From a bacterium (GTDB lineage: Bacteria > Patescibacteriota > 4484-211 > GCA-002791395), in assembly GCA_027002475.1 (NCBI GenBank), contig JALWZS010000018.1, forward strand, positions 1,093-56,634: DNA of 55,542 nucleotides, read 5' to 3'. Of this stretch, positions 19,138-43,892 are shown one piece after another (positions within the stretch are counted from its first letter, which is position 1; every line of letters begins with the position of its first letter). The translations under genes and the position numbers were made by a program. A model generated the notes under the pieces. That model did not search any database, was not told the DNA's origin, and worked only from the letters and a program-made list of their open reading frames with translations.

Positions 19138-19139
19138 TA

Positions 19140-25014: not shown

Positions 25015-25086
25015 ATATTCCTTTGTAGTTCGTATTGTTAGCACTAGGATGATATCATATTGAGGAATTCTATAAACATATTTTCG

Positions 25087-26133: not shown

Positions 26134-26135
26134 AT

Positions 26136-27047: not shown

Positions 27048-27051
27048 CAAG

Positions 27052-27097
27052 AAAAAAGCCCGGAACCACACTATGTGTGGCCCCAGGCTTCGTTTTT
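27052..27097. terminator. bidirectional terminator at the island's left edge
   Basis: AAAAAAGCC...CCACAC TAT GTGTGG...GGCTT CGTTTTT between convergent genes. Confidence 0.6.
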
Positions 27098-27752: not shown

Positions 27753-28098
27753 TTCCGCCTCCCCGCTTTCGGTCAGGTCCGATATGGGCAAGCGTATCAT
27801 TCAGCTGGCTAATGGGCACTCGGAAGAACTGCGCCCGTTTTCCTTTTATCTCCGCGAACGGTGGAATATCCGCGTCAAAGGAAAAATGGGGCAGTTGTAA
27901 GTGCGTTAACGCGCGTTCACCATAGTGATCTAAGCTTCTGGAGGTTTGTCGTACCAGAAATATAATGGCCGAATCCATGGCTTCTGGTGCAACAATTTGG
28001 GAATGGTGAATTCCGCCAACTTGAACTGATACCTTCACCTTATTAGGGTTTTTCCTTGCGAAAGCGATAGAAAGATTAGCTGTTAATTGGGGTTGCAT
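27745..28098 (-). CDS. hypothetical protein
   Basis: AAGGAG RBS before ATG 28098; overlaps the start of the next gene. Confidence 0.7.
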   Translation of the reverse strand: MQPQLTANLSIAFARKNPNKVKVSVQVGGIHHSQIVAPEAMDSAIIFLVRQTSRSLDHYGERALTHLQLPHFSFDADIPPFAEIKGKRAQFFRVPISQLNDTLAHIGPDRKRGGGNG

Positions 28099-28168
28099 AT
28101 TCACTCCTTGTGTTGGTTCGAGTACGGAGAAAGGGGCGTATAACCGTCCCTTTCTCCGTGGTGGTAAC

Positions 28169-28795
28169 CTAGCCGAAGGTAGACTCAGTGATCTTGCGCC
28201 GTAGAAGTATTAACTTGGGGTGAATATCCATCCCTTCATCGAAGTGTCTCTCGTCTCCAATGAAGGTGATCAATCCAAGCACCACTGAACTGCGAAACGC
28301 GAGTCCTAGTACTTCTCGCTCTACTTCTTGCAGTCGTCGGAACACTGTCGGTGCAGTTTCTTTATATGTCCCGTTTTCATAGTGACCGACAACGCAAACT
28401 ACATCACGGTAGACGTGGGGTTGGTACCCCAATGACCTCGCGAAATGTAGTTTTCCTACTGCAGCGTCCTCTCCGATATGACTGATGCTAGTCACTATTT
28501 GCATATCTTTTTTGCAGTGTCTGCAAAATCTTTCAGAGGGGTTCTGCAGGAAGGTATCAGTTGGTAATGGGACTTCACAGATGGCGCACGCAGGCGGTCC
28601 GCCTCGTTGTTGGGCACGCTTAAGGGCGTCCCGTTCGATTCGGCGACGCCTAAGCTGTGCTACAAGGCGTGACTTTGTGTTGATTGCTTCAGCAACCTCC
28701 GCCATGTCTCCAGTTTTGGCTAAGGCAGAGATTTCTTTGAGTAATTGCTGGATATCTGAGTCTACTTCGTTAAGTTTTTGCTGAATAGCGTCCAT
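28169..28795 (-). CDS. DksA/TraR-like C4 zinc-finger protein with C-terminal extension
   Basis: Coiled coil with DMAEVA tip (cf. DxxDxA), then CAIC-x17-CRHC with the conserved Pro (NPSERFC). Confidence 0.65.
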   Translation of the reverse strand: MDAIQQKLNEVDSDIQQLLKEISALAKTGDMAEVAEAINTKSRLVAQLRRRRIERDALKRAQQRGGPPACAICEVPLPTDTFLQNPSERFCRHCKKDMQIVTSISHIGEDAAVGKLHFARSLGYQPHVYRDVVCVVGHYENGTYKETAPTVFRRLQEVEREVLGLAFRSSVVLGLITFIGDERHFDEGMDIHPKLILLRRKITESTFG

Positions 28796-29187
28796 TGTTC
28801 TGTAGGGGGAGTGTGGCAGGGTGGGTGGAAAAAATCAGTAGAACGCGTGCCTGCCCACGCGAACTACTGAAAGGGTTAAAGGTTAGTTCATAAGCACCTC
28901 CTTTTTTGAGTGAATGAGTGAATTAAAATGCCCTTTTATTGATTGGGGTCGCTGCCATTAAACGGTTTATTGAAAATATGTTTAATAGTAACGGCCCCAA
29001 TCAATAGCAACCCAATGGATATTGATATTAGCCTATTTGTTAAAGTCCTAGTGTGTATACATATTTATAACACATCAATCAAGATTTTTAGCTTATCCTA
29101 TCTTGCATCCAGATTTATATGAATACAAAGTAGAGTAATCTAAATAAACTATCCCCCCGAGCCTTGCGACCCGGGAGGATATAACTG

Positions 29188-29322
29188 CTATCGATGTCGC
29201 CTACCCTCCTTAAACCCTCTGCGGGTTTTTTTAAGTCCCCGCGTTAGGCGAGCGGTCTTTTTGGGGGGATGGCGGCGTTTTTTGCCCTGAGTAGGGTAGA
29301 ACAGCTTTCTGACTGGATTCAT
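29188..29322 (-). CDS. unannotated 44-aa Lys/Arg-rich peptide
   Basis: AAGGAGGT RBS; hand translation MNPVRKLFYPTQGKKRRHPPKKTARLTRGLKKTRRGFKEGRRHR*; followed by a hairpin. Confidence 0.6.
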   Translation of the reverse strand: MNPVRKLFYPTQGKKRRHPPKKTARLTRGLKKTRRGFKEGRRHR

Positions 29323-29364
29323 CGTACCTCCTTTTGGGAGTTGTAAGAAGATTGAGAAAGCGAA

Positions 29365-30648
29365 TTATGCCTCTTCGAATTCGTCGATAAGTTCTCCCTC
29401 GACGAATTCGGGAGCGGGTTCAGCTTCTTCGTAGAGGGCTGTGGGCCATTTGCCCGGGTCCTCTACGCTTTGCAGGTCGATGATCTCCCCGGTCTCCGTC
29501 AGATCTTGTATGATCTTAAGGAGTTGACGGACCTGATGGTCGTTTTCAGCCATCAGGATGCCAGCTCGGGCGTCACCTGCACTGGCTACAATTTCGGCAT
29601 AGGCTTTTGCCGCCTGTGCTTCCAGTGCGGCAATGGTTTTTTGCTGTGGGGATTGAGCTGCTCGTCGCGCTAGCTCGATGAGAGAACGCGCGATGTTGTG
29701 AGCGTTTTGAAGCCCAAACGCTCGATCTCGAGCCGTAGGTCCGTACCTAGAGGGAAGGTTAATGTCCCCTATCCCCCAGATCTTATTAAGCAGGCCGTCG
29801 ATGATGCGACCACTAAGAGTCGCATTCTCAAGTCCCACCTTCTCGCCGGGTGAAACCACTTGGATCTCCTTAAATTCGGTTAACGGGCCAAAGCTCATAT
29901 ACCGAGTCCAAGGGATTCGCACGCGTGATTTCCACGCACGGTAGGTGGTGACTACTAGGCGGTCGTGTTTACGATTCCATTCGGTAAAGGCTGTGATGAC
30001 AAGAATCATAAACACTAGAAAAGGGATAACGAAAATGGTGTATTCTGCAAGGTTCGGTAAGGGGAGCCCAAACAGTACCACCACACGCCAAATGAAAAAC
30101 ACAAGTGCGCTAACGCTTAAACCCGCGATAAGCGTTACCTGTGCTACTCTTGGGTAAGTGGTGACCCACGGACTTGCTGTCAATACCATTTCCACTTCTT
30201 CTCCATGAAGGAGCTTGACTCCCTGCTTGACATGAAAGATGGAATCAACGAGCTCCTCCATTTTTTCTACGAGTCCTAACTTGGGTTTATATCTGCCCGA
30301 CACTCGTAGGATTGTGGCTACGATGAGGTTAATGACCTCATACGAGAGCCAAGTCGTAACGAGAACCTGAGCGAATGAGAACACTACTTCGCTTGCAATC
30401 AGGTATTGGAGCTGTGAAAAAGCCTCGCTCGCTCCGGCTGTTCCCGCTGGTAGGACGATGGCCCAGAAGACCGTCTTTATCTTGCCTTCTGGCAAACTCT
30501 TCATCACTAGGATGACTACCAGTACGGCCATCATCTGGGTAAAGATTTGCCAATCCTGAGTGGTTGTACCATTGACCACACTAATTACCCACAGTGCGGT
30601 CAAGATGGTAGATACCAGACTCAGGATGAGTAGGACTGCTTTCCGCAT
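29365..30648 (-). CDS. multi-TM membrane protein with bacterial PH-like domain
   Basis: About six TM segments, then RLVVTTYR...IQV...IWGIGDINL pattern; AAGGAG RBS. Confidence 0.65.
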   Translation of the reverse strand: MRKAVLLILSLVSTILTALWVISVVNGTTTQDWQIFTQMMAVLVVILVMKSLPEGKIKTVFWAIVLPAGTAGASEAFSQLQYLIASEVVFSFAQVLVTTWLSYEVINLIVATILRVSGRYKPKLGLVEKMEELVDSIFHVKQGVKLLHGEEVEMVLTASPWVTTYPRVAQVTLIAGLSVSALVFFIWRVVVLFGLPLPNLAEYTIFVIPFLVFMILVITAFTEWNRKHDRLVVTTYRAWKSRVRIPWTRYMSFGPLTEFKEIQVVSPGEKVGLENATLSGRIIDGLLNKIWGIGDINLPSRYGPTARDRAFGLQNAHNIARSLIELARRAAQSPQQKTIAALEAQAAKAYAEIVASAGDARAGILMAENDHQVRQLLKIIQDLTETGEIIDLQSVEDPGKWPTALYEEAEPAPEFVEGELIDEFEEA

Positions 30649-30764
30649 ATTCTCTCCTTGAGAGTGGTTTTGGTATTAGTAGATAAAGATAATCTTTGGA
30701 ATAATGGCTGTAACCCTTCCATATGGCGCTGCTTGTAGCTTTGCCATAGGAAGGGTTTGTCTTT

Positions 30765-32117
30765 TTATCGTACCCGCAGTTTGACCCAGAAGGGTCTACC
30801 TACAGGTTTGCCACATTCATCATACAGCTGGAATGTGGCTTTTTGTGATCGCCCTTTCTTTTGGGGAACGATCACGGCAGTGACCTTAAAGGTCTTGCCA
30901 GGTTGAGCAGGCTCGACCGTAAAACTCACAAGTTTGAAGTTACCTTTTTCCAGTTTGAGCTGGAAGTCAGCGGTAACTTCATTATCGCCTGTAACCTTAA
31001 AGAGCCAAACTTTTTCAACTTTCTGGCCCTTCTTAACCTTACTCCCATCAGGGAGCGTGACGTCCTTCTGGAACTTCAAGGACGTGCCACACACCTTTGC
31101 AGGAGTGGGGGTAGTGGTTGGGGTCGGCGTGATGATTGGGGTTGAGGTCGCTTCGGGCGTGGGTGTTGCTGTGGGGGGGGGTGTGGGTATCTCCAACGCT
31201 GGCTGGTCGACCAGCCAGGTCGGCATTTGTCCCCCACCAAGCTTCGTTAACTTTTGAGAACTTGGTGAGATGTGCCACACTTGGCACCCTCCATAGCAGA
31301 AGAAACCGTAGTCCTCCACGGCTTCCTCCCCTGCCCGTGTAAATACAATGCCATTGGGTCCCCATTCAGGGTCAATAGCATCGCCCACCTCAGTCAGCCA
31401 CTCGCTTTGGCGCGTCACCAAGTTGAGGGTTTTCAAGTCCCACCCTTTGTCGCTTCTGGCGGCGAAGACAAGCTTCGTGCCATCAGGGGAGAAGCTGGGG
31501 AAAATACCCTCTACCTGTAGGTCTTCGCGAGTGATTTTTCCGTCAAGATTCGCGGTTGCGAGCCAAAGGTCCCACTCACCTTCGCGCTTGCCCTTTTGCG
31601 ACCAGGCGATTTGCCCCGCGGGGCCTAGGGCAGGGGTGATGGCTTGAGTGGCAAGGTTAAGCCGAATGTCATCGGGATAGATGACAATCGTGCTTTTCGG
31701 ATTCTCAAAATTAGAATAATCCGTTTGCACGAATACGGCTTTCCCACCGACTGAGGGGCCTAGAAATTCGCCACCCTCTGGTAGAGTGGCGAGGGGACTT
31801 TTTCCCCGAATATCCACCAAAAGCGTTCCTTGGGGATCTTCGGAGAAGGCAAAGTAAGAAGATGGCCAAGCGAGCCCCATGTCGCTCCATTTGGACTCGA
31901 ACGACTCTTTCTCGCCAGTATGAAGATCTTTTTGGACCAATTGACCGGAGTCGTTGACCCAAAGAACTTTACCGACCGGTTTTTCCTCTGCCACCTTGAC
32001 CGGTGTCGGAGGTGGCGTCGGGGTTAATGCTGGAGGGGGAGGCTGGCTGGCTTTCCAGCCTAGCCATATGGCGAATATGGCTAGCAGGACCAGCCCACCT
32101 ACTTTTGTGAATCTCAT
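30765..32117 (-). CDS. membrane-anchored TolB-like beta-propeller plus NBR1-type Ig-like domain protein
   Basis: PSFSPDGTKLVF (PD40 repeat), PT linkers, FQKDVTLPDG...KVW signature. Confidence 0.75.
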   Translation of the reverse strand: MRFTKVGGLVLLAIFAIWLGWKASQPPPPALTPTPPPTPVKVAEEKPVGKVLWVNDSGQLVQKDLHTGEKESFESKWSDMGLAWPSSYFAFSEDPQGTLLVDIRGKSPLATLPEGGEFLGPSVGGKAVFVQTDYSNFENPKSTIVIYPDDIRLNLATQAITPALGPAGQIAWSQKGKREGEWDLWLATANLDGKITREDLQVEGIFPSFSPDGTKLVFAARSDKGWDLKTLNLVTRQSEWLTEVGDAIDPEWGPNGIVFTRAGEEAVEDYGFFCYGGCQVWHISPSSQKLTKLGGGQMPTWLVDQPALEIPTPPPTATPTPEATSTPIITPTPTTTPTPAKVCGTSLKFQKDVTLPDGSKVKKGQKVEKVWLFKVTGDNEVTADFQLKLEKGNFKLVSFTVEPAQPGKTFKVTAVIVPQKKGRSQKATFQLYDECGKPVGRPFWVKLRVR

Positions 32118-32258
32118 AATTTTTCTCCTTGTGAGAGATGGTGGTTGATTGTTGGGTTGATGAGAATTTGAGTTGTGTTTTTACACATAAACTCATGACA
32201 AATGAAAACGATTTAGTCTTCATCTAGCATGAATTAAGGTGTCCGCGAGGACAGGGGG

Positions 32259-34010
32259 TTACCCCTGCCCTCGCTCGATGGTTAGCTCGTTAACTACATC
32301 GGCAACGCGTTTGCCGTTTACCGATGCTTGACTCAGTGCCTTACCAAGTTCGCTTAACTGGACTTGGGCCTCGAATAAACGAGTGACAAGGCCACTGTTT
32401 AGTTTCCGGATCGATGGATCATACTGCTGTAAAACCCGAAGGTATTGCTGCTTCGAGATTTCGCGATGTGATCCATTTGTCCTTTCCGCGGAAGGCTTGG
32501 ACTCCGCTGGGCGGCGTGTACCGTCACCCCGTCGTCTTTCGGCAAGTTCAGCCTCATCGATTAGAAGCTGTGCGACCCGCCGCATTGCTTTGGGCGTCTC
32601 TAATGCTTTCAGTACAGCGTTAAAGGCATACCCAACGACAAGATCTGTCCCTCGCAGAAGATGCATGAGCCGTCCAGCTTCCTCGGCCCATTGTTCCTCC
32701 TGCTCGCGCTCATGGGTTTTATCTTCTTGAGCCCAGAGCGCTTGCCAGGCCGCAACGGCTTCGTCCCAAGGAACACAAACATGCCCTTGTTCGCGGTTAC
32801 ACTCAGCAAGTTGATGAAGGTATTTTAAAGCCGCCTGGGGGTTTTTCTGCCGCGCGCAGCGCTCGCGGACCTGCTGATGTACCCATAATCGTTCAGGGTC
32901 GTTTTGGAACATCAAATCCGGGCGCCGCGTAGTGGTGTCATTACCCGTCATCGAAAGTGAAGGGTAGCTAACACCTGCGGTTTTGGGGCGATGCATCCAC
33001 ACGGTGGTGGAGTTGGGGCCCCCAACGGCGTCGAATATGTTACTGTTGCTCTTCGACCCCATTAAGGCCGCAAAAATGCCAGTGATGCTGGCGTCGTGGC
33101 CCTCGGGTCCCATGCCGACGGTTTGTACCATCGGTAACATCGCTTCGTTTAATGCCCGCGCAGGGATGCCGCCACTTGTAGCGGCAGACCCCTCGTAATG
33201 TGGGGCATAAACGAACTTTGCCAGCCCTGCAAGCGAATCCACGATAAAGATAACGTGATACCCACTCTCGTACAACCGAATAGCGAGCAACTTCGCTGCG
33301 TCAGCAACGATTCTTGCCGCTAAGTTACGGTTGTTTTGAGTTGGGTTAGCAAGTGATGGAGACTTCGAGTTGCTTAGTCCAACTAAAGCCTGGAAGTGGT
33401 ACAAAGGTACCCTCCCGGCGTATTGGGCAAGCAGCTTTTCGGTCTCTGTAACATCATGCGTTCGTTCTCCTGCTTGGAGGTGAACGAATGCCATCTTTTT
33501 CCAGTTTTGCCCTGCGAGCTCGAGGAGACTTTGTTCAACCTTGAGGATGGTCGTAGTCTTCCCTGAGCCAAAGTCTCCCGCGGACATTACTTGAGACCCA
33601 GGGCCAATTGGGGCAATTGCTCGCAGTGCGCGGGTTGTTGGATCTCGAGTAATATCGATGGGCCATTCCTCACGAGGATAGCCCAAGCGATTCCCCGATG
33701 TCTCGACATGGTCGGCAAACCATGGTCTGTTTTTGACCATTTCGTAGTCTACCAAGCCATTGACGGAGATGATTCCGGCAACCACTTTGCCATGTCGAGT
33801 AAAACTAATTTCATCCATTTCCCGCAGCCCCCACTGTTCTACAAGCTGGGGGGGGATCAATGGGCGTTTCCTCGCTGTTATCGCGAGGTTGGGATGCTCT
33901 TGTAGTGCCTTCTGAGGCACTACAAAGAAGTCGTACCCTTTCCCTTTAGTGGAAAGGATGGGGATTACAAATCCCCTTACGACTTTTTGGTCCTCAGTAG
34001 TTGTTGGCAC
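32259..34010 (-). CDS. divergent Rho-family (Rho/F1/V1-like RecA fold) ATPase with N-terminal OB-like domain and C-terminal extension
   Basis: APIGPGSQ, GDFGSGKTT, GERTHDVTE, GYHVIFIVDSL, SGG, SITGIFAAL, YPSL...TRRPDL are collinear with Rho motifs; GTG start with AAGGAGG. Confidence 0.8.
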   Translation of the reverse strand: MPTTTEDQKVVRGFVIPILSTKGKGYDFFVVPQKALQEHPNLAITARKRPLIPPQLVEQWGLREMDEISFTRHGKVVAGIISVNGLVDYEMVKNRPWFADHVETSGNRLGYPREEWPIDITRDPTTRALRAIAPIGPGSQVMSAGDFGSGKTTTILKVEQSLLELAGQNWKKMAFVHLQAGERTHDVTETEKLLAQYAGRVPLYHFQALVGLSNSKSPSLANPTQNNRNLAARIVADAAKLLAIRLYESGYHVIFIVDSLAGLAKFVYAPHYEGSAATSGGIPARALNEAMLPMVQTVGMGPEGHDASITGIFAALMGSKSNSNIFDAVGGPNSTTVWMHRPKTAGVSYPSLSMTGNDTTTRRPDLMFQNDPERLWVHQQVRERCARQKNPQAALKYLHQLAECNREQGHVCVPWDEAVAAWQALWAQEDKTHEREQEEQWAEEAGRLMHLLRGTDLVVGYAFNAVLKALETPKAMRRVAQLLIDEAELAERRRGDGTRRPAESKPSAERTNGSHREISKQQYLRVLQQYDPSIRKLNSGLVTRLFEAQVQLSELGKALSQASVNGKRVADVVNELTIERGQG

Positions 34011-34145
34011 TACAAATCCTCCTTGAGTGATTTTAACAATTAATAAATTTTTGGCCTTCTTATGGGCCGATTAATAAATTCATTGGTGCATGAATTTATT
34101 AATCGACCGGGAATGCCCATCCTCTATGAGAAGGACGGGCATTCC

Positions 34146-36197
34146 CTATTTAAAGTGGACTGAAACGGTTAAATACTGCCCGTTCCGAGACCACGTTATT
34201 ACTGCGGTCTTGTTTGTCCTGTTTTGCAGGATTATTGGGCTTCCTGGACACACTATCGCTGTATGGAGGTATTTCCTCCACGGCGTTGCATGGTGTCTGG
34301 GGGCTCGTAGCACTGCAATGCCAGGAGTCTTTCTGGCTAAGCTTACGAGCATGGAGGCGTTGTAACAAGTGCCTCCCCCAATATATCCCGCAGCGACTCG
34401 GTAGCCACGCCAACCATTCTTGACATCGCTCATTGTACAGAAGTTCCACTTCTGCCCCGGAGCAATTTGAATGGTTTGGTTGCGCCGCGCCCACAAAAAA
34501 ACGTTAAACTTCTCACCGTCATTTTGTGGCGCGACCCTCCAGCTTCCAAAGTTGTAAGTCACGGAGTAGGTTCCGTTAACATTACTCGTTGGAAGAGAAG
34601 GGGTGGTTGTGGACTGAGACGTTTTTGAGGGGATATTTGCAGGGTACACAATCCTCCCTTTCATAGGACCCTTGTAAGCGCCGGGAGGTACTGTGCAGAA
34701 CTTGCAGTATCTCATAGCGCTTCTTGGGAAGACTCTGCTTGGCGGAATCCTACCCCCATGGAAGATTTCCATATGGGTGTGGGGCCAGCTAGTAATGCCT
34801 GTCCTCCCAAGGTGCCCTACTGGCGTACTGGCTGTTACGCGTTGACCAGCACGCACGAGAACCCGTCCGTCTTTTCTAGGGACGTTCATTCGACGGACGA
34901 TTGTTCTATTGTTTTCATTCGCCAGATGACAAAGGTAGGCTTTATACCCGCCATCCAAACGAATGATTACCCAGCACCCGTACCCACCAGCGTTGTTGCA
35001 TCCTGCATACTGCACAACGCCATTGCCTGGAGAGTACACAACTGCTCCTATTGGAGCAGAGATGTCCCAGGCTAGTACACTACCTCTCCTTGGGTTTGTA
35101 TGATCTTTCTCGTCTGATGAAAGAACATTCGAGTAAAGAGGCAGATACAGGTACTGACCTATAAACAGGTTGTAGGAACGAACCCTACCTGTCGTCGGAC
35201 CAGCAGGTGGTTGGCTGGGATTGGTGTTGTAGATTTCTTCGGCTTGCCGGTAGAACTCGGCATCATCAATTTCTGGAGCAAGTCCGAGGATCTTTAGGAA
35301 TCCGTAGGCTAGGTTTTTCCACCAGCTATTATTGATCTGTTCAGACCATGTAACAGCTCCCAAACTACTGATCCCATCGGCATCACCAAGGTATTGTCGG
35401 TACTCGTTCGCCGACTCTACCATTCGGGTGATCCAAGGCTTATGGTGATTCCATCTCCATAAAGCCTTGATTTGTTGGTCGGGGCGCGCTGTCTTATCCC
35501 ATCCGATTCTGGCCAGCTCAGCAGCCATAAGGTGCATGGCTGTATCTGGATTCCAGAGATCGAAAGGTGGTTCAACCACGTCCCTGTTCATCCATGCCGT
35601 GTACGGCATGAATTGCGAACAGCCGAGGGCTCCCGCCCCCCGAGATCCTTTTACCGAATTAAGTGAATAATCCGGTCCGATGTATTTGGATGAAAATGAA
35701 TTAGGATCACTCCTAATGTCATACTTCTTCCACATCGGCAGGAAGAAATCTCGGAGTTTAGCAAGGTCGTTATTGAAACCTCGCTTCCGGAGCTCCTCAG
35801 CGGCAGAAGCCGTTCCTGCATTCGAGCAGTTCCCGGACTCACTTCGAGTAAGCCGGATGTAAATCGCTCGGTCGCAGGATTTTAGCTTTTTAGGGTCATC
35901 ACGGAATTGCTCTTTACACCAGACCTCCGTGGCGGTTGCCCGCTGTAGGAGATCAGGGGGGATATTGAGCTTTTCCACAATTTGTTCTTCCCTACTGCTT
36001 AAGTCGTAGCTCGCTGTAATAGCGAGCGGAGAGGTCTGGAGATCAAGGAAATCAATGACTCCCTCGTTCCAGACGCTCTCCGATACCATGTCCCGCATGT
36101 TGTAGAGTACAGCGGCACTGGCACCAAGAGAAACTACCACTATAGCTACGATTAAGGCTAGGAGGATTAATGTGTATTTAGTGACCTGTCCTAACAC
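34146..36197 (-). CDS. cell-wall hydrolase: lytic transglycosylase + M23 peptidase + VanW-like domain
   Basis: N-terminal TM; ESG...GALGCSQFMPYT; WDISAPIGAVVYSPGNG...YLCHL...WPHTHME; GGGTCYNASML. Confidence 0.8.
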   Translation of the reverse strand: MLGQVTKYTLILLALIVAIVVVSLGASAAVLYNMRDMVSESVWNEGVIDFLDLQTSPLAITASYDLSSREEQIVEKLNIPPDLLQRATATEVWCKEQFRDDPKKLKSCDRAIYIRLTRSESGNCSNAGTASAAEELRKRGFNNDLAKLRDFFLPMWKKYDIRSDPNSFSSKYIGPDYSLNSVKGSRGAGALGCSQFMPYTAWMNRDVVEPPFDLWNPDTAMHLMAAELARIGWDKTARPDQQIKALWRWNHHKPWITRMVESANEYRQYLGDADGISSLGAVTWSEQINNSWWKNLAYGFLKILGLAPEIDDAEFYRQAEEIYNTNPSQPPAGPTTGRVRSYNLFIGQYLYLPLYSNVLSSDEKDHTNPRRGSVLAWDISAPIGAVVYSPGNGVVQYAGCNNAGGYGCWVIIRLDGGYKAYLCHLANENNRTIVRRMNVPRKDGRVLVRAGQRVTASTPVGHLGRTGITSWPHTHMEIFHGGRIPPSRVFPRSAMRYCKFCTVPPGAYKGPMKGRIVYPANIPSKTSQSTTTPSLPTSNVNGTYSVTYNFGSWRVAPQNDGEKFNVFLWARRNQTIQIAPGQKWNFCTMSDVKNGWRGYRVAAGYIGGGTCYNASMLVSLARKTPGIAVLRAPRHHATPWRKYLHTAIVCPGSPIILQNRTNKTAVITWSRNGQYLTVSVHFK

Positions 36198-36208
36198 ATT
36201 ATCCTCCT

Positions 36209-38176
36209 TTATCGTTTGATAAGAGAGCTACTCGTGCCGAAGAGTTCGACAATTTTTTCTGGGATATCCGGGGAAAACTCAAACTCCCCTCGAGTAGCGA
36301 ACGGGACTCCAGGGCGTGCAGTGGGGATAAACCCAATCGCTTTTTTGAACCCCGACCCGAGTTCCAGGCGGATACCAAAAGCGATGGAATCCCATGAACC
36401 ACTGGGCCAAGAGTTGAAACTTTCGGCCGAGTGCTCGATGACAATCGTCATCAGCCCCAGTTTGCGACCTGAGACGATCTGAACCTTGATCTGATTTCTC
36501 AGATCGGTACCGACCCGCTCGGACAATTGTCCGTACTGAGTTGTGGGTACGGCAGGTGCAGCTGAGACATCATCGTGGATGATGCTCAGTGGCTGTCCTT
36601 TGAACAGTTCATCCCATGCCGCGAGTAGCTGCTTGAGCCACTCGTTGGCATACGCGGCGAACCGCGTCGGACAACTGCCTTGCGACGCTTGTAACACCGC
36701 AGGCAGTCCAATTGGACGACCATATTTACGCCACTCTTTCTTGAGATTGGCCCAATAGATAGCAATTTCCCGTTTGTCTTGAGCGATTAGGCGCTCAAGT
36801 TCGTGGGCGTTCGAGGCGCCAGGGAGATCGAATCTTATGGGTTGCCCCGTCGATGTGGCTTTTACGTAGTCGTGAATTCTCTCAGGGTTCTGAGAGTAAA
36901 TCACCGTTACTACGTGTTCGGCTGCGTGCTGAGCTGCAAGCGTTTGGGCCATTGTAGACTTGCCGGTGCCCGACTCACCAACGAGTACGACTGATGTCAT
37001 CTCGTCTTGGCGAACAAGGACAGGCCAGCCTGACTTGTGGCCCAAGCACATGTTTCCACTTAGATCTGAAGGATCACGCGGAAGGGCGGTGAATAGGTCT
37101 AGGACTTCTATTCCCTCGATAGGGGCCGTATTCCACGGAAGTGGAGCAGGTCCACCAGGGACAAATGTCTGGAGGGCTTCACGGAGTCCAAACCCGTCCT
37201 CTTCCCAGACGCGAATTTGCTTGGTCTTAGCGACCTTTGCGAGTTCTGCGCCTATATTGTCCAGTGCTTTGGGATCAGTGCTCCCAAAGCGGACTAGTAT
37301 GGTTGCCCATGAGCGGGATGATGTATCTCTCTCAACATGGACCAAGAGATCCACCGGGAGTGCGTCGATGGCATTTGCAAACGCCTCTACACTACGAGGC
37401 AACACTCGCCAGATGGCAAAGTGTTTTTCTCCCAACGTATAGAAATTATGGGAGAAGCTAATTGCCTCAGGAGCTCCTGCGAACAAGACGAAATCTGGAT
37501 TTGGCTGTGTACCGTTGAGGTTTCGACCAAGCATGGTATCCCAAACAAGGGAGGGAAGCCTGGCGAAATCAACTGTGCGAGTGTCCCCAACAGCATCCTG
37601 ACCGCTTTCAGGGATACCGAACCCAGCTGGAGCCCATATTACGAGCTCCTTGCTGGTGAATGGGCGGATGCCTTCCCGCAGAGCGGGTGGAACGGTCCAT
37701 TCACTAAGGGCTTGTAGGACCTGAGCTGTGAGTTGTTCATTGGTTCGCGCTGGGCTCAGTTGCTCTAGAATCGGTCCCAGGGGGACCGGAACCGAGCGGA
37801 TAAACATCGTAAACCATGGCACTCCAGCCAAAAAGAAACTCTCGACGGAGTGTGGCTTACGATACACGGCAGCAGCTCGCCAGCCGCCGCTAAATCGCCC
37901 TGTGGGCTTGATGAGGGCTGTGTTACCGCCCTCGACCCGTGCTGTTTCAATCCCTAGGGTACTTTGGATAGCATGTACCCTTGCTCGAAACGCACGCTCT
38001 TTATCATACAAAGCTAATGCTGAGGGACTAAAATGCTCCTCAACAGCGGGCAGCTTATCGCCCGCTTTGCTCTGTACGATGGCATAGCCCTTGGCTACCT
38101 TTTCGGTTTTGGGCAGGCAGCTTAAAACCGCCTCTACCGCCTTTCGAATAGGCGGTCCCAAGCCTGGTGATGTCAA
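36209..38176 (-). CDS. VirB4/HerA-like P-loop ATPase
   Basis: C-terminal-half Walker A (VGESGTGKS), Walker B (IIHDD), GRKLGL..IVIEH; TTG start with GGAGG. The family call relies partly on gene context. Confidence 0.6.
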   Translation of the reverse strand: MTSPGLGPPIRKAVEAVLSCLPKTEKVAKGYAIVQSKAGDKLPAVEEHFSPSALALYDKERAFRARVHAIQSTLGIETARVEGGNTALIKPTGRFSGGWRAAAVYRKPHSVESFFLAGVPWFTMFIRSVPVPLGPILEQLSPARTNEQLTAQVLQALSEWTVPPALREGIRPFTSKELVIWAPAGFGIPESGQDAVGDTRTVDFARLPSLVWDTMLGRNLNGTQPNPDFVLFAGAPEAISFSHNFYTLGEKHFAIWRVLPRSVEAFANAIDALPVDLLVHVERDTSSRSWATILVRFGSTDPKALDNIGAELAKVAKTKQIRVWEEDGFGLREALQTFVPGGPAPLPWNTAPIEGIEVLDLFTALPRDPSDLSGNMCLGHKSGWPVLVRQDEMTSVVLVGESGTGKSTMAQTLAAQHAAEHVVTVIYSQNPERIHDYVKATSTGQPIRFDLPGASNAHELERLIAQDKREIAIYWANLKKEWRKYGRPIGLPAVLQASQGSCPTRFAAYANEWLKQLLAAWDELFKGQPLSIIHDDVSAAPAVPTTQYGQLSERVGTDLRNQIKVQIVSGRKLGLMTIVIEHSAESFNSWPSGSWDSIAFGIRLELGSGFKKAIGFIPTARPGVPFATRGEFEFSPDIPEKIVELFGTSSSLIKR

Positions 38177-38304
38177 AGGAATCCTCCGTTTGAGTGGTTG
38201 TTGATTGATTGTGTGTTATTGAGATGTTAATCTCATATCTACTTATAACTTAATTTAGTTCTAAATAGATATGAAACAGGGACGACGGATCGCCGTCCCT
38301 GTTG

Positions 38305-38745
38305 TTATTCGGTTGTAGAATCTTCCGCATCACTTCGAGTGATGCTCGTGGAAGAATCTTTTTTTGTTTTTGGTAGCCTAGCCCAGAACCATGACAGGGT
38401 GGGTTGCAGTCTAGCCCAGAGCCACGACAGAGCCTTGCGCCAGTTAGGCGCTTCTGCTCTGTCGAAATGCACTCCAGTCCAGCCTCTTTTGTAGGCAAAT
38501 CTCGCCCAGAGGTTCATGACCTCACCATACGCCAAGTACACGGCGTAGAAGGTCAGAAAGAACCCTACGGCGTACATTACCGCCGTGAAGAGCCGGGTGC
38601 TGAGCATAAACGTGCTCAGAGCAACTACAAACCCCACCATAGCAACATACAGCCACTTGACGTGGATGTATGTGTCCTCGCTACCAATTTGAACGACTTT
38701 TGTGGGGTCGTGCCAAAAGCGCACTAACTGTTTCCAGGGGTTCAT
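38305..38745 (-). CDS. two-TM protein, VirB3/PrgI/TcpE-like by position
   Basis: Two adjacent TM helices; lies directly upstream of the ATPase; ATGA-coupled to the previous gene. Confidence 0.5.
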   Translation of the reverse strand: MNPWKQLVRFWHDPTKVVQIGSEDTYIHVKWLYVAMVGFVVALSTFMLSTRLFTAVMYAVGFFLTFYAVYLAYGEVMNLWARFAYKRGWTGVHFDRAEAPNWRKALSWLWARLQPTLSWFWARLPKTKKDSSTSITRSDAEDSTTE

Positions 38746-40145
38746 GCGTCACCCCCTTTAATGTCCGGCGCATTGGTGGGAGGAGGGAAGACTATTTGCC
38801 CTTCGTGGGCAATGGTTCCCCCATTGTCGTCCACGATCTTCTTTGACGCCCTCTTAATCTCGGGGTCGTCAGGGGATACGTAGACGATAGTTCCGTCGTC
38901 GCGTCGCTCCCGTACAAGCTGTACCGCGTCGTCGACCGCCGCTTTCACCACTGGTGCGGCTTCAGGCGCGCCAGCAGCAGTAGTTGCCACAGCGGCAACG
39001 TTGCCTGCTTGTTTAAGAGCGCCTTCTCCAACCGCCTTAACCTTTGATGGTTTATCTTTACCTGTGTTGGGCGCTTGGGGTGGTGGAGTAGCTTGAGCGA
39101 CGTCTCCGTTTGGGTCAGTGGGACCAGGTAGCCGCTTTTTAGTTGGCGCTGGGGTAACCACCACTGGTCCTCCTCCTGGCGGAGGCGGTGGGACTGGGCG
39201 CCATGTTGCGTCCACCCAGCCGTCGTCGCTCTCTCCGCCGCCGTTGCCCGAGCTTTGTGGCGCTCCAGTGGTTTGAGAGCTCTCAGTGCTAGTGTCTGGC
39301 TCACTCCGGAACTTATTAATTAGCCATGCAGCGGTGAGCTCGTCACCGATGCCCGCATCTCCGAAGAAACCGGAGATTTTCCCCTTGATATCTACGTTTT
39401 GGCCGATCATACCTAAGCCAAAGTAGATGATCAAAGGGCTTAGCATCGTGACTCCCGCTAAGAACCCAATCACCATGAGGTAAATCGAGTTCATGTTGGC
39501 GAGCGTTGAGCCCACCACGCCTTCTGGTTTAAACCCTGCCATCATGTCGACCGCTACTTTGTACAGGCGACCGAACATGGCAAAGGTAAAATACCCGCCC
39601 ATCCAGGCAACAAACGGGCGAGCGGAACCAGAGAAGACAACCCACCACATGACAATTGGGAAAGATAGGATGATTACAATTTCCCACCCGTAGTGCCATG
39701 CGATGAGTGTTTTGGTGGCGGCTACAAAGGCAAAAGCCGTTGCTGGATTTGCGTCGGCTGTGAAATTGCCAATAACAAACCCTAACGATTTTCGCACATA
39801 GTTGAAAGTCAGGTCATCAGGCCAGAGTTGCAGACCCATTTTATGAAATTCAACTATAATCATGGAGCCGAACGCGACAGCTGAGTCTAGCCAGACCCAC
39901 TTTATAACCTCAGCCCATTTTCCGTTCGGTAGGGCTTTGGCTATAAAGATCAGGCTGAAAACGATTACGGGAATGGCTAGAACTGTTAAGTGCTCGATAA
40001 GCGATCCCTTAAGCGGGACGAATGCCGCGCTTTTAAACGGAACTGCTTTTTCAAGCAATTTGCCGACCTGGTCGTCGGCGCTGCAGCTTGACAAGATCAC
40101 TGGCAGCAGTCCGACGACCAGAAGTCGCAGGCGTTGTACTCTCAT
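38742..40145 (-). CDS. polytopic membrane protein with G/P-rich tail, VirB6/TrbL-like by architecture
   Basis: Lipobox-like ILSSC; about 6 TM segments; long low-complexity C-terminus. Confidence 0.55.
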   Translation of the reverse strand: MRVQRLRLLVVGLLPVILSSCSADDQVGKLLEKAVPFKSAAFVPLKGSLIEHLTVLAIPVIVFSLIFIAKALPNGKWAEVIKWVWLDSAVAFGSMIIVEFHKMGLQLWPDDLTFNYVRKSLGFVIGNFTADANPATAFAFVAATKTLIAWHYGWEIVIILSFPIVMWWVVFSGSARPFVAWMGGYFTFAMFGRLYKVAVDMMAGFKPEGVVGSTLANMNSIYLMVIGFLAGVTMLSPLIIYFGLGMIGQNVDIKGKISGFFGDAGIGDELTAAWLINKFRSEPDTSTESSQTTGAPQSSGNGGGESDDGWVDATWRPVPPPPPGGGPVVVTPAPTKKRLPGPTDPNGDVAQATPPPQAPNTGKDKPSKVKAVGEGALKQAGNVAAVATTAAGAPEAAPVVKAAVDDAVQLVRERRDDGTIVYVSPDDPEIKRASKKIVDDNGGTIAHEGQIVFPPPTNAPDIKGGDA

Positions 40146-40384
40146 AGGGCTTTAATTACCTGATTAGCCTTCTGAAAGAGACTCTGCCAAATCTTGCCCA
40201 TGTAGGGTGCAAGCCAGCCAGATTTGGGATGGCCCAGCAGTTCGGGAACTGCGATGACCAGGAGCGAAACGAAGAAGAGCCCGATGATCAAATTTTGCCA
40301 ATCCATCTTGAGTCCTCTTTTGATGAGGACAATAAGTAAGATGATGGCAATGATCAGTAGTGCAACGTTAGTCAAAACGCTCAT
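40142..40384 (-). CDS. small two-TM pilin (VirB2)-like protein (80 aa)
   Basis: AAGGAG RBS before ATG 40384; two hydrophobic helices separated by KRGLKMD. Confidence 0.5.
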   Translation of the reverse strand: MSVLTNVALLIIAIILLIVLIKRGLKMDWQNLIIGLFFVSLLVIAVPELLGHPKSGWLAPYMGKIWQSLFQKANQVIKAL

Positions 40385-40706
40385 TGTTTTTCTCCTTTTT
40401 AAGAGAGAGTGAGGGTGAAAAGAAAAGAGTTTTGGCCCGATTGATTGTCGGGTTGTCTTACCCGGTGACTGTTTCGTCATCAGGTAAGGCAACCCTCCCA
40501 GAACGTGTCTGAGAAAGGCTGCTTGGGCTTTTTAGGTAAAAGCCTACACCCTAACAATCAACCACTCAAGGATTTTGGTTATCTTGATTGATTGTTAACG
40601 TGCTCATTGCTAAGCTCGATAACAATGAAAACCTCCGCTATGGGCGGTTTTGTTTTGTCATCGAGAGCTGTTGTGAGGACGGCGGTTGCCCGTCGCCCTC
40701 ACTAGC

Positions 40707-41423
40707 TTACTTCTTATTCTTTTTTTTGCCTTTTTTGCCCTTGCCTTTACGGGCTCGGGCGAAGGCGTGGGCGAAGGCTGTGCCGTTGCGCTCGTTGGGG
40801 ACGATTTGCCGAATCGCTCGGAGGCGACCGGGTCCAATCCCCTTGATTCTCAGGAGCTGGTAGTCGGTGGCGTTGAGAATCCACCCGACAGTTTTTCCTG
40901 CGGAATCGAGGACTTTGCCAATCTCACCTTCGATAAGGGTGCTGGCGGGGAGTTCGGCGGCCTTTTTGGATTCTTCCCAAGCCTGGGCAACCGCCCTGTT
41001 GAGTAATTGAGCTTGGGTGAGGTCGGGTGTGGTGAGGGGCAGAATCTCTGCCAAAAGACCTTCGGCCTTTGAGAAGGCTTTGGCGAAGGCAGGGACGGCA
41101 GCAATGACTGCGGCATGGTGCGGCCTGTCCTGCAAGTCGAGGAGATTCTTAAAGGCCTTATTGACCAGGTTGTCAATGTAGGCCTTTTCTGCTTGTGCAA
41201 GCGTAGACTTGAGGACTGCGTTCTTGGCTTGCAGCGCCTCTGCAATCTTCATTGCGTTGGCGCTGTCGGCCTTGCGCAGGTTGCCGGCTGTTGCTCGGGC
41301 ATCGTGCAAGGCCCTCTTCAGTTGTGGGTTCTCCTGCACCTTGCGCGGGAGATTGGCGACCTTTTTTTGGAGAGCCTTGAAGGCTCTCAAGGTCGCGATG
41401 GGTGAAAGGTTAGAAGACGTCAT
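40707..41423 (-). CDS. helical protein with C-terminal helix-hairpin-helix (RNAP alphaCTD/ComEA-like) and basic tail
   Basis: AGKTVGWILNATDYQLLRIKGIGPGRLRAI; AAGGAG RBS before ATG 41423. Confidence 0.7.
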   Translation of the reverse strand: MTSSNLSPIATLRAFKALQKKVANLPRKVQENPQLKRALHDARATAGNLRKADSANAMKIAEALQAKNAVLKSTLAQAEKAYIDNLVNKAFKNLLDLQDRPHHAAVIAAVPAFAKAFSKAEGLLAEILPLTTPDLTQAQLLNRAVAQAWEESKKAAELPASTLIEGEIGKVLDSAGKTVGWILNATDYQLLRIKGIGPGRLRAIRQIVPNERNGTAFAHAFARARKGKGKKGKKKNKK

Positions 41424-41604
41424 GGTCTTACTCCTTGAGTGTTTTGAAAAGATGGATGGTTGATATGCCCTTTCATTTTTTAAGGGGTAGAGGAGAAACA
41501 AGACTACATGGCTGCCCTGCACTTTAGTAAAGTCATGCCCCTTCTCTACCCCTTACTATTGTGAGGTGCTACACATCTTATAGCAGATGTGTTGTTGTGC
41601 GTTA

Positions 41605-41633
41605 CATATAGCATGTGTAACACGATTTGTCAA
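41605..41633 (-). promoter_or_regulatory. sigma70-type promoter driving the island, overlapped by palindromes
   Basis: TTGACA (41633-41628), 17-nt spacer ending TGC, TATATG (41610-41605). Confidence 0.6.
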
Positions 41634-41756
41634 TTGTTAGACTAATTAAAAGTGGGTATTTTGTGAGTTGTGAAAATGTGTTACCTACTTATTCGTTATA
41701 TATAATCGCAAAAACAGCATAAGGCAGTAGGGTTATATTCTATGGGGTACTTCCTG

Positions 41757-41868
41757 GCAAAAAAGACCGGGAACTGCTGTGTTCTCGTTCCGTTACTCCC
41801 CCTGAAACGGATGTAGAACTATGCAGCTCCCGGTTTCCCCAATACTGCTCCCCTAAGCAAGGAGGTAC
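41757..41868 (-). ncRNA. candidate small structured RNA
   Basis: TG-n-TATAAT at 41875-41880; long interrupted stem 41766-41834; ends in a U-tract. Confidence 0.45.
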
Positions 41869-41950
41869 GAACGAATTATAACATGGAATTAGTTGATGCT
41901 AATAAAAATACATCACCGTAATGAATAAATCTTAATAATGTTAAGTAAAT

Positions 41951-41985
41951 AAAAAAGGCGAAAGGAAGTGGGACTCCCTTTCGCC
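41951..41985 (-). terminator. intrinsic terminator
   Basis: GGCGAAAGGGAGT CCC ACTTCCTTTCGCC TTTTTT directly after the 77-aa gene. Confidence 0.8.
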
Positions 41986-41991
41986 AGATGG

Positions 41992-42225
41992 TCATTGGGC
42001 AAATAGAAAGATGACACTAACTACTGCCCAGGAGAATACAGCTACAGCTATCAATCCGAGAAAGATTAATATTCCTCGGACTAGCCCTCTGGCTGAGGGG
42101 CAACGAAGCTTCCACTCGGGGTGATTTGTTTTCCATTCTTGCCAGCTGTCCTTGACCAGCCAGCCCAGTCCAACAAGAATGAAAAAGAACAGTACAAAAT
42201 TTATCAGATTATCAGGATTAATCAT
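41992..42225 (-). CDS. small two-TM membrane protein (77 aa)
   Basis: AAGGAG RBS; two hydrophobic helices; own terminator. Confidence 0.7.
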   Translation of the reverse strand: MINPDNLINFVLFFFILVGLGWLVKDSWQEWKTNHPEWKLRCPSARGLVRGILIFLGLIAVAVFSWAVVSVIFLFAQ

Positions 42226-42315
42226 AATGTCTCCTTATTGAGTGGTATTTGAAAAGAACTGTTGCCTTTGTTGGCGTTGGTGGAATTGTAGCATTATTAC
42301 GCAACGGGTGTGTAG

Positions 42316-42570
42316 GAGGGGGTGGAGAGTTGAAGAGTTGAAGAGCGTCGTTGCGAGCGATAGCGCGGCAATCTCGAATGGGTAGATTGCCACGGAATTT
42401 ACATAATAAATTCCTCGCAGTGACAAGAAAACGGCAATGGTTCCGTCATTGCGAGAAGCGGAAGCGACGAAGCAATCTTCTGTCATGTTCGAGACTGCCG
42501 CGTTGGTTAGCACCAACTCGCAGTGACGAAAATGTTGCTTCGCCCCGATATCTATCGAGATTGCAATGAT
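42316..42570. repeat. short 8-mer array plus REP/RPE-like palindrome cluster at the island's right edge
   Basis: GAGAGTTG AAGAGTTG followed by GTCGTTGCGAG...GCAATCTC, GTCATTGCGAG...GAAGCAATCT and further units. Confidence 0.85.
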
Positions 42571-42665
42571 GCATGTTTCATGTGCTTAAGAAAACGATAG
42601 ACTCTTGCGTGATGATGAGTTAGTAGTAAAATATTTAATGCAAGTGAAGTGGCATTTAATTAATC

Positions 42666-43892
42666 ATGCAAGAAGCAGAAGGGCAACAAAATCACAATCA
42701 AGCCAGTGCAAAAACAAAATACCCTAGTCCCCTATTTATATTTTTAATGGCTTTAATCTTTGGATTTGTGGGTGGAATTGGTGGGACTTATACCGCTTTT
42801 AAATACCTTGGCACGCCTGTAAAGCAAATGGTTAAAGAGGAGGTTAAAACCCAAGTTGTTGATGAAAGCTCGGCAATTATTGACACTGTTGAAAAAACTA
42901 AGGATGCGGTTGTTAGTATCGTTATCAGTAAAGATGTTCCTGTTTTTGAAAATTATCGCTTTGATCCGTTTGGCGATGGGTTCTTCTTCCCGTTTTATCA
43001 AAGAAAACAGGTAGGTACAGAAAAGCAGCAAGTTGGGGCTGGAACTGGTTTTTTTGTGTCGGATGATGGAACAATTGTTACGAACAAGCATGTGGTTAGT
43101 GATCCAGATGCGGAGTATACAGTGATACTAAATAACGGGGAAAAGTACGATGCAAAGGTCTTAGACCGCGATCCTTACATCGACATTGCAGTAATTAAAG
43201 TTGCCTACAAACCAAAAACCTATATTTCTCTTGGCGATTCATCGAAGATAAAGGTTGGTCAACGAGTTATTGCAATCGGGAATTCGCTTGGGCAATTTTC
43301 TAATACCGTTAGCGAAGGAATTATCTCCGGACTTTCCCGCTCAATTGTTGCTGGCTCTGGAACTGGTAATTATGAGCAGTTAAATGATGTTATTCAAACC
43401 GATGCTGCAATTAACCCTGGTAACTCTGGTGGTCCGCTTTTGGATCTTAACGGAAATGCGATTGGTGTAAATGTTGCTGTAGCCCAAAACGCGGAAAATA
43501 TTGGTTTTGCTATTCCAATTAATACTGTAAAGTCGATACTGCAGTCAATTAAGGAGCATGGAAAGATTGTTCATCCATATCTTGGGGTCCGTTATGTCCA
43601 GATAAATAAGGATATACAAAAGAAAAATAACTTGAGCGTTGACTATGGCGCTTTGATTGTGCGAGGCGAAACCCGAACTGATTTAGCAGTTATTCCAGGA
43701 AGCCCAGCTGATAAAGCAGGACTTAGGGAGAATGACATAATTCTTGAGGTTAATGGTGTAAAACTTGATGAAAAGACGAGTCTGCAACGCGAGATTCTAA
43801 AATATAACGTTGGTGATGAGATTACTCTAAAGGTTCTTAGCAAGGGTAAAGAAAAAGAAGTAAAGGTAACCCTTGAGGCAAGGGAGGGGTGA
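42666..43892 (+). CDS. htrA: HtrA/DegP-family serine protease with PDZ domain
   Basis: TNKHVV, DIAV, QTDAAINPGNSGGPL, SPADKAGLRENDII. Confidence 0.95.
   Translation: MQEAEGQQNHNQASAKTKYPSPLFIFLMALIFGFVGGIGGTYTAFKYLGTPVKQMVKEEVKTQVVDESSAIIDTVEKTKDAVVSIVISKDVPVFENYRFDPFGDGFFFPFYQRKQVGTEKQQVGAGTGFFVSDDGTIVTNKHVVSDPDAEYTVILNNGEKYDAKVLDRDPYIDIAVIKVAYKPKTYISLGDSSKIKVGQRVIAIGNSLGQFSNTVSEGIISGLSRSIVAGSGTGNYEQLNDVIQTDAAINPGNSGGPLLDLNGNAIGVNVAVAQNAENIGFAIPINTVKSILQSIKEHGKIVHPYLGVRYVQINKDIQKKNNLSVDYGALIVRGETRTDLAVIPGSPADKAGLRENDIILEVNGVKLDEKTSLQREILKYNVGDEITLKVLSKGKEKEVKVTLEAREG

Follow-up and report, generated by a model that had tools for sequence, protein, structure and literature searches.

A diverged VirB4-like ATPase and a Rho paralog are encoded together in an accessory T4SS-like module of Patescibacteria

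A gene block with a VirB4-like ATPase and a relative of Rho

The window, by which we mean the whole 55,542-nucleotide stretch analyzed here (G000:C18:1093-56634), comes from a patescibacterial genome of 1.09 Mb in 48 contigs (~40% GC, 93.2% complete), and the sole scaffold gap of its contig falls outside it. It contains a block of nine genes at 29365-41522, all on the minus strand and with a GC content of 48-57%, that encodes a VirB4-like ATPase of the kind found in type IV secretion systems (T4SSs), a set of membrane proteins, a cell wall hydrolase, and a relative of the transcription termination factor Rho. An initial annotation had read this block, placed at 29365-41423, as a minimal T4SS-like export module with a Rho-family ATPase. 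The nine co-oriented open reading frames (ORFs) stand as it placed them, except that the upper end lies at 41522, position 41423 being an internal ATG. The partial coupling of the genes through ATGA overlaps was also correctly observed and occurs at two junctions, 40142-40145 and 38742-38745.

Six of the nine genes recur in other genomes and form a conserved core. In the direction of transcription, these encode a polytopic lipoprotein-type membrane protein of 467 aa with a long Pro/Gly/Ser-rich tail (38742-40145), a small protein of 146 aa with two transmembrane (TM) segments (38305-38745), the VirB4-like ATPase of 655 aa with the Walker A motif GESGTGKST (36209-38176), the hydrolase of 683 aa (34146-36197), the Rho-like protein of 583 aa (32259-34010), and a multi-TM protein of 427 aa (29365-30648). 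TM segments were counted throughout with a hydropathy script.

Pfam places the 655-aa ATPase in generic P-loop families only, all under cut-off, and the VirB4 models PF19044, PF12846, and PF03135 gave no match at E<=0.01. An AlphaFold2 model built from 77 aligned sequences (pLDDT 87.7, pTM 0.84) was then compared with the PDB by Foldseek, and TrwK/VirB4 of the R388 T4SS occupied ranks 1 to 14 among the matches listed. The best of them, 7o41_B, had an E value of 5.5e-13 (TMq 0.52, TMt 0.50, ~750 columns), and the TrwK/VirB4 alignments spanned ~750-850 columns. The next folds were HerA (1.7e-6, TMq 0.25) followed by FtsK and TcpA (2.6e-5), with E values at least a million times weaker than those of TrwK/VirB4. 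Thus, despite the absent Pfam VirB4 match, the fold comparison recovers both the N-terminal and the C-terminal P-loop domain that characterize VirB4.

At the level of sequence, the family stands apart. Its profile aligned by hhalign with three canonical patescibacterial VirB4 proteins at 96.4% probability (E 1.1e-9, 138 columns), with FtsK at 95.6% (E 1.2e-8, 183 columns), and with VirD4-like proteins at 87.8% (E 3.3e-6, 63 columns), and its weak genome matches fell, in 17 of the 25 loci examined, on genes for FtsK (12), VirD4-like proteins (3), or VirB4 (2). A word-indexed homologue search with the ATPase returned only itself. Among 1.84 billion proteins, a profile of five orthologues matched no more than 91 cluster representatives at E<=0.001, with lengths mostly of 590-780 aa, and did not reach the canonical VirB4s. 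None of the 10 representatives examined carries a functional name, and one other cluster member is labeled "hypothetical protein." As modeled, then, the 655-aa ATPase is a structural homologue of VirB4 and would represent a small and very diverged VirB4 family. The label "T4SS-like" is right because the ATPase has this predicted homology, and a VirB4 family that standard hidden Markov models (HMMs) miss matters for surveys of T4SSs.

The Rho homolog is likewise genuine. Rho accounts for 9 of the 13 PDB sequence matches of the 583-aa protein at E<=1 (best 7.5e-7), and hhalign of the six-member Rho-like family against eight bona fide patescibacterial Rho proteins gave a probability of 99.9% (E 3.1e-34) over 296 columns that run from the second half of the OB fold through the end of the ATPase domain. 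Within these columns the Rho motifs GKT (Walker A), GER..D (catalytic ER), DS (Walker B), GG, and T.TR are aligned. The two NCBIfam Rho models gave E values of 3.2e-10 and 6.3e-10, their 38-40 bits comparing with equivalog cut-offs of 315-628, and the sole Pfam match was ATP-synt_ab at 4.5e-4, under cut-off. An ordinary Rho is encoded elsewhere in the same genome (G000:C30:41978-42925). Because the protein lacks matches to PF07497 and PF07498, aligns only from inside the OB fold, and scores below the cut-offs, and because contig C30 carries this ordinary Rho, we take it on sequence grounds to be a true Rho paralog with intact ATPase motifs, rather than an orthologue of the termination factor.

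Phylogeny points the same way. A branch with 100/99 support sets the Rho-like family apart from Rho, in a tree whose long branches call for caution, and the branch lengths show the family evolving far faster than Rho. A word-indexed search with the Rho-like protein found one relative (P0002, 34% identity), and a profile search added only ordinary Rho. The protein has no TM anchor by hydropathy. Its C-terminal extension of ~180 aa, which the initial annotation had proposed to model in complex with the membrane proteins, turned out to be lineage specific and outside the conserved core: it is present only in the proteins of the window, genome G005, and P0002, N- or C-terminal extensions in this family being lineage specific. 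A complex prediction with Rho-like residues 1-440 and residues 225-427 of the multi-TM protein gave a median of 0.05 where the mark was 0.32, a value that speaks neither for nor against binding.

The identities of the remaining core proteins are less secure, and several labels in the initial annotation (pilin, VirB6, VirB3, PH, and helix-hairpin-helix [HhH]) could not be verified. Pfam found nothing for either small 2-TM protein of the block, the polytopic protein, or the 427-aa "PH" protein, and no PrgI match. The polytopic protein has orthologues in 5/5 genomes with the module, all with an invariant lipobox Cys21 and all without a Pfam match, and its profile scores 443-695 bits in metagenome loci. 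Its position and topology fit a VirB6/TrbL-type channel. The top three Atlas clusters for it are named TrbL/VirB6 (scores 0.81-0.83), which serves as a lead only, and its AlphaFold2 model, at pLDDT 43, is unusable. In every lineage, the gene immediately before the VirB4-like one, in the position of VirB3, is a 2-TM ORF of 86-146 aa; hhalign of this family against the genome's own PrgI gave a probability of 0.3%. The multi-TM protein has orthologues in all lineages (310-566 bits in metagenome loci), a conserved cytoplasmic tail, and two conserved motifs, EW.R following the last TM segment and one of the EDPG..YD type at the C terminus. Atlas offers bPH_2 for it only at rank 10 (score 0.83), in 10% of that cluster's members, and "PH domain" thus stays an unverified name.

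The hydrolase is better defined. Of the three activities ascribed to it (transglycosylase, M23, and VanW), the M23 assignment stands, with Peptidase_M23 over cut-off at 9.4e-13, while SLT_2 (0.0055) and VanW (0.0084) remain under cut-off. The protein is membrane anchored by one N-terminal TM segment, and its conserved N-domain holds the weak SLT_2 match. Orthologues adjoin the VirB4-like gene in every locus, and the protein is an analogue of VirB1, with the role of a dedicated peptidoglycan hydrolase.

Co-inheritance of the two ATPases beside a canonical T4SS

We surveyed 401 sampled genomes of the phylum with profiles of the VirB4-like and Rho-like families and added two metagenome loci (L082 and L084). 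The VirB4-like profile gave full-length matches (404-586 bits) in 5/401 genomes (G000, which is the genome of the window, G351, G126, G059, and G005), with all others at or below 31.6 bits. The Rho-like profile scored 555-716 bits in the same five, the next best match being an ordinary Rho at 138 bits. Both families therefore occur together in 5/5 genomes, and either one occurs in 0/396 others. The initial annotation had named unlinked Rho-like homologs as an observation that would count against it; the Rho-like family was never found away from the VirB4-like one.

The genes for the two ATPases are separated by 2-5 kb, and their order is conserved. The polytopic lipoprotein (460-500 aa) is followed in each of the five genomes by the small 2-TM ORF, the VirB4-like ATPase, and the hydrolase. 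The multi-TM protein and the Rho paralog come last, the former leading in three lineages and the latter in the window and G005. The six recurrent core genes fall into four deep lineages with <30% identity, and the linkage holds in all four. L082 and L084 have the same order and add no new lineage because they are 74-88% identical to the G059 type. At the level of sequence, strict co-inheritance of the two ATPases is thus shown across four deep lineages, and each of the five genomes has kept its ordinary Rho as well.

Three lineages encode, along with the module, another small membrane protein of 116-161 aa that has a conserved FPD..GP.DD motif (L012:13738-14088, L014:14699-15184, and L013:3138-3506); no relative of it was found in the window island. 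In one WWE3 locus a serine recombinase lies 4.5 kb from the cluster. We treated it as unrelated because BLAST of a related WWE3 locus gave no similar protein among the ORFs as far as hisS.

The genome of the window also encodes a canonical Patescibacteria-type T4SS, at the start of contig C38 (G000:C38:719-5263, L025), with a PrgI-like gene (212 aa), a CarboxypepD_reg protein (421 aa), a TrsD/TraC-like gene (252 aa), and a VirB4 (665 aa, P-loop_TraG 4.6e-29). Two VirD4-like coupling proteins (847 and 943 aa) are encoded at G000:C2:2839-9117 (L028) and G000:C30:101489-104320 (L027), and FtsK is present too. Each of the other four genomes has a canonical VirB4 and two to three VirD4-like genes elsewhere, unlinked to the module. 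Because a canonical VirB4/PrgI cluster and VirD4-like proteins are found elsewhere in all five genomes, the module is an accessory second system, on which a coupling protein may act in trans.

These data qualify the statement that neither VirD4 nor a relaxase accompanies the block. Pfam finds no VirD4 in the island, and VirD4, relaxase, and integrase are all lacking from the island and its contig. In the 93.2%-complete genome, the relaxase families PF03432, PF01076, PF03389, and PF02486 have no match, other classes such as MOBC not having been searched, and the serine recombinase family PF00239 has none either. The part of the statement that does not hold for the genome as a whole concerns VirD4, given the two VirD4-like genes elsewhere. 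Tyrosine integrases occur on contigs C30, C1, and C2 only. The one on C2 (389 aa) lies ~2.6 kb from the VirD4-like gene of that contig, and the pair may mark a separate integrative element.

Interpretation of the module and its alternatives

In monoderm conjugative T4SSs, a VirD4/TcpA coupling ATPase and a relaxase are needed. The module resembles such systems (MPF-FATA: pCF10, pCW3, and ICEBs1) in its order of small membrane protein, polytopic protein (candidate VirB6 type), small protein in the VirB3 position, VirB4, and bifunctional hydrolase and in having no outer membrane core components. It differs in that the island has no linked VirD4 or relaxase and no recognized VirB8-like protein and instead carries a Rho paralog. 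The archaeal Ced DNA import system, which imports nucleic acid with a minimal VirB4/HerA-type ATPase, one polytopic protein, and two small membrane proteins, offers another likeness. Ced is not known to have a Rho-type ATPase or a cell wall hydrolase.

The closest comparison is with the T4SSs already described in Patescibacteria (Wang et al. 2023, PMC10633639; Quinonero-Coronel et al. 2025, PMC12102498). According to these two papers, those systems are akin to monoderm conjugation machinery, lack a relaxase, and either have no coupling protein or encode it at a distance, VirD4-like genes being near-ubiquitous in the phylum and usually unlinked to virB4 (PMC12102498); in one species tested genetically, the T4SS is essential for epibiotic growth (PMC10633639). 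Our module shares with them the phylum, the monoderm-type VirB4-based layout, the small membrane protein, polytopic protein, and peptidase or lysozyme downstream of virB4, the absence of relaxase and linked coupling protein, and the suspicion of a function other than conjugation (PMC10633639, PMC12102498). The claim that the composition was undescribed is thus too broad, since T4SSs without relaxase and linked VirD4 are already published for Patescibacteria (PMC10633639, PMC12102498). What survives of that claim is the link between Rho and a T4SS. The word "Rho" has 0 occurrences in the main texts of PMC10633639, PMC12102498, and the 2025 review PMC12857230, and nothing relevant that joins Rho to T4SS or VirB4 appeared in the literature searched, although the supplementary tables of PMC10633639 and PMC12102498 might list such neighbors. 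The island lacks the VirB4, TraC, and PrgI Pfam matches of those systems (with Pfam as a proxy for the HMMs of PMC12102498), the island adds the Rho paralog and the conserved multi-TM protein, and the canonical system sits separately on C38. The distinct VirB4 family and the obligatory Rho paralog are what is new relative to the published Patescibacteria T4SSs.

Taken together, the fold of the ATPase, the fixed gene order, and the linkage make it very probable that this is a distinct T4SS-like module of which the Rho paralog is an integral part. The best explanation we can offer, which we hold tentatively, is an accessory, diverged VirB4-based T4SS-like envelope machine with the Rho paralog as a ring motor at the channel. 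On the cytoplasmic side of the VirB4/channel complex, the paralog would assemble into a Rho-type ring and there fill the place that the VirD4 coupling ATPase has in conjugative systems. The polytopic lipoprotein would be the candidate VirB6-type channel, and the ring would thread single-stranded nucleic acid, either RNA or single-stranded DNA (ssDNA), into or out of it. Lineage-specific surface proteins of the island may mediate contact with a partner cell. The narrower proposition that the paralog is the motor for a nucleic acid substrate is plausible, and we put it forward with a little more reserve.

The homology on which this proposition draws covers ~300 residues, from the second half of the OB fold through the complete RecA-type ATPase domain, and the established activity of the Rho family is translocation along RNA. 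Compared with the termination factor, the paralog has ~22-25% identity and occurs in every case as an additional copy, adjacent to secretion genes, in a genome that has an ordinary Rho. Functional parallels for a hexameric RecA-type ATPase encoded with a membrane translocon exist in the type III/flagellar ATPases FliI and InvC and in VirD4, as an analogy only. FliI belongs to the same F1/Rho branch, and VirD4 feeds the ssDNA-protein substrate to VirB4/VirB6. The Rho paralog differs from these in having no TM anchor, in being closer to Rho than to F1/FliI, and in having no homology to VirD4 beyond the P-loop.

Several points weigh against the motor reading. Rho_RNA_bind and Rho_N (PF07497 and PF07498) have no Pfam match in the 583-aa protein, and the alignment of the family with Rho includes the OB fold only from its second half on. 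Its contact with the membrane machine and its binding of nucleic acid are what we infer, and the VirB6 and VirB3 identities are unproven. The VirD4-like proteins available in trans in all five genomes mean that a substitute for the coupling protein is not required. The linkage itself has only four independent lineages behind it.

The strongest alternative grants the T4SS-like machine and makes the Rho paralog a dedicated terminator or regulator of a GC-rich foreign operon, outside transport. To our knowledge, the Rho family has no established function besides transcription termination, and the paralog has kept the ATPase motifs and part of the OB fold of that family and is encoded within a horizontally acquired block of atypical composition. 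Every host, however, already has an ordinary Rho. The gene is moreover co-inherited with the structural genes across lineages with <30% identity and sits amid membrane protein genes, not at the operon head, while its product has no detectable Rho_N or Rho_RNA_bind and evolves far faster than Rho. We regard this alternative as unlikely, though it is the one to be taken most seriously.

The block could also be the remnant or transfer module of an ordinary integrative and conjugative element (ICE), with its VirD4 elsewhere, an unrecognized relaxase, and the Rho-like gene as a passenger or accessory helicase. The GC island, the patchy distribution, and a VirB4-plus-hydrolase core typical of monoderm conjugation are what one would expect of such an element, as are two VirD4-like genes elsewhere, the one on C2 being ~2.6 kb from a tyrosine integrase. 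A passenger gene, however, would not persist in four lineages in fixed order. The four relaxase Pfam families and serine recombinase were not found in the genome, no integrase lies on the island contig, the island has no flanking direct repeats, and no contig runs across an empty site. VirD4-like genes are, moreover, found almost throughout the phylum and mostly apart from virB4 (PMC12102498). An ICE origin in this sense seems quite improbable.

About equally doubtful is a protein exporter for effectors or adhesins, in which the Rho paralog would act like the type III ring ATPases and unfold or release protein substrates. The family profile does match F1 alpha/beta subunits (1e-14 to 1e-9), Pfam's sole match is ATP-synt_ab, and lineage-specific surface or secreted proteins are encoded alongside, namely the PD40/Ig protein in the window and, at other loci, ORFs whose N terminus carries a hydrophobic segment. 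The family matches Rho far better (~1e-38 to 1e-41) than F1-type ATPases, however, and keeps the OB-fold segment of Rho, while the N-terminal hydrophobic segments of the neighboring surface proteins suggest export by Sec.

A virus-like or prophage element, with an FtsK/HerA-superfamily ATPase packaging the genome and the M23 enzyme as lysin, is very improbable: the best viral fold for the VirB4-like model in BFVD is Gp155 of Bacillus phage G (G3MBM1, 549 aa; E 2.6e-14, TMq 0.46) and the PHROGs M23 matches are annotated as tail or endolysin, but capsid, portal, terminase, and integrase went unrecognized among the island proteins scanned, tblastn of the ATPase gave no match among 50,697 phage records or in plasmids, its PDB fold is that of full-length VirB4 and not of a packaging ATPase, and searching phage and plasmid records with the Rho-like protein brought up nothing but ordinary rho genes. 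As a separate observation, Gp156, the neighbor of Gp155, matches the VirB4-like model more weakly, and this giant phage may carry VirB4/VirD4-like ATPases.

We return to the envelope machine with a Rho ring at its channel. Because it pairs a VirB4 machine with a Rho-family motor, the module is a testable candidate for nucleic acid traffic, possibly of RNA, between epibiont and host. The substrates of Patescibacteria T4SSs without relaxase or linked coupling protein are a standing question to which it offers a concrete candidate, and if the motor role holds, it widens the repertoire of secretion ATPases. The most far-reaching version of the proposal, a Rho-derived ring translocase as substrate motor of a T4SS-derived channel for secretion or uptake of RNA (or ssDNA) in episymbiotic Patescibacteria, we consider improbable as a whole. 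If it were true, an epibiont could pull in host RNA or inject RNA into its host, and transport driven by a Rho-family ATPase would have its first example. The module would then stand as a living counterpart of the "RNA helicase plus membrane channel" stage that Mulkidjanian and colleagues reportedly proposed in 2007 for the origin of rotary ATPases. In a 2026 preprint, a cultivated member of the phylum is reported to take up host RNA, and T4SS pili are suggested to lie at the interface (10.64898/2026.06.21.733656).

The island, its accessory genes, and its surroundings

The block is part of a larger island of ~14.8 kb (~27.06-41.9 kb). In 400-nt bins, GC is 0.45-0.60 over ~27.2-41.6 kb, except for a dip to 0.40 at 28.8-29.2 kb, and 0.34-0.43 in the flanks. 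Because the cluster exceeds its flanks in GC in 7/7 loci profiled and is patchily distributed, we conclude that the island was acquired horizontally. The neighbors outside it are housekeeping genes (UvrA, UvrB, glycosyltransferases, an HtrA-like protease, enolase, and PPDK).

Three genes of the nine-gene block lie outside the conserved core. The first (40707-41522) encodes a soluble protein of 271 aa (238 aa if translation starts at the internal ATG at 41423), whose tail is rich in Lys and which contains a GIG hairpin-like motif. It was labeled an HhH protein in the initial annotation and matches neither HhH nor another Pfam family at E<=0.01; BLAST found no relative in the four other module loci. 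It may be regarded as a candidate nucleic acid binder specific to the lineage of the window. The second (40142-40492) encodes a 2-TM protein of 116 aa (~80 aa from an internal ATG) that is pilin-like by position only and has no family match over cut-off in Pfam, NCBIfam, or PHROGs. The third (30765-32117) encodes a PD40 beta-propeller and Ig-like surface protein of 450 aa, with PD40 (1e-5) and N_BRCA1_IG (9.6e-11) both over cut-off and an N-terminal hydrophobic segment by which it would be anchored or secreted. BLAST found no relative of it in the other module loci, and it is possibly an adhesin or cargo.

Four small genes on the minus strand at 27097-28795 (208, 119, 146, and 88 aa; GC 0.47-0.55) complete the island. 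They have no Pfam match and no relatives in the other module loci. The largest product, of 208 aa, combines a coiled coil with a C4 zinc finger and gives a weak DksA/TraR-like match (NCBIfam DksA_like, 3.8e-4, far below cut-off). Scans of the island proteins with NCBIfam, PHROGs, and PADLOC gave nothing decisive, the PADLOC defense system models yielding only two P-loop-level matches to mads_8 (E ~3e-4).

A promoter-like site on the minus strand (41875-41902; 10/12 consensus positions, extended TG) precedes the first island gene. The host gene before it ends in a 13-bp terminator-like hairpin (41957-41985), and the site follows shortly after this hairpin. A second terminator-like hairpin, also on the minus strand (29150-29181; 14-bp stem with 8 GC pairs), marks the end of the nine-gene unit, and a third of 17 bp (27055-27091) ends the four small genes at the left GC border. 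The promoter-like site and the latter two hairpins are pattern matches only. Because of the hairpins at 29181-29150 and 27091-27055, the sequence suggests two transcription units in the island.

No direct repeats flanking the island were found. ARAGORN detected no tRNA over the window, and so no RNA gene integration site was identified; Rfam gave no match on 26000-44000 at E<=0.01. When contigs from four public runs were aligned to 25000-44000, none joined across an empty island site. Contig depth in run X1 was ~9-12, alike for island and flanks, and one X1 contig spanning 39840-42042 crosses the right GC border, while the left border is bridged by none of the contig records listed.

Just beyond the right border, at 42118-42751, the summed contig depth rises to 50-86, compared with ~10 around it, in all four public runs, and many different loose contig ends fall at 42442-42477. 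The segment looks like a short repeat common to many organisms; Rfam and ARAGORN gave no match there, and a 93-aa ORF at 42235-42516 is probably spurious. Farther to the left in the window, a 2703-aa ORF at 3528-11639 is preceded by a 951-aa ORF at 669-3524 that has no Pfam match at E<=1e-5. UvrA and UvrB are encoded at 15675-21599, ~6 kb from the island, and a UvrB gene (L013:15615-17711) adjoins the module in G005 as well, which may be coincidence.

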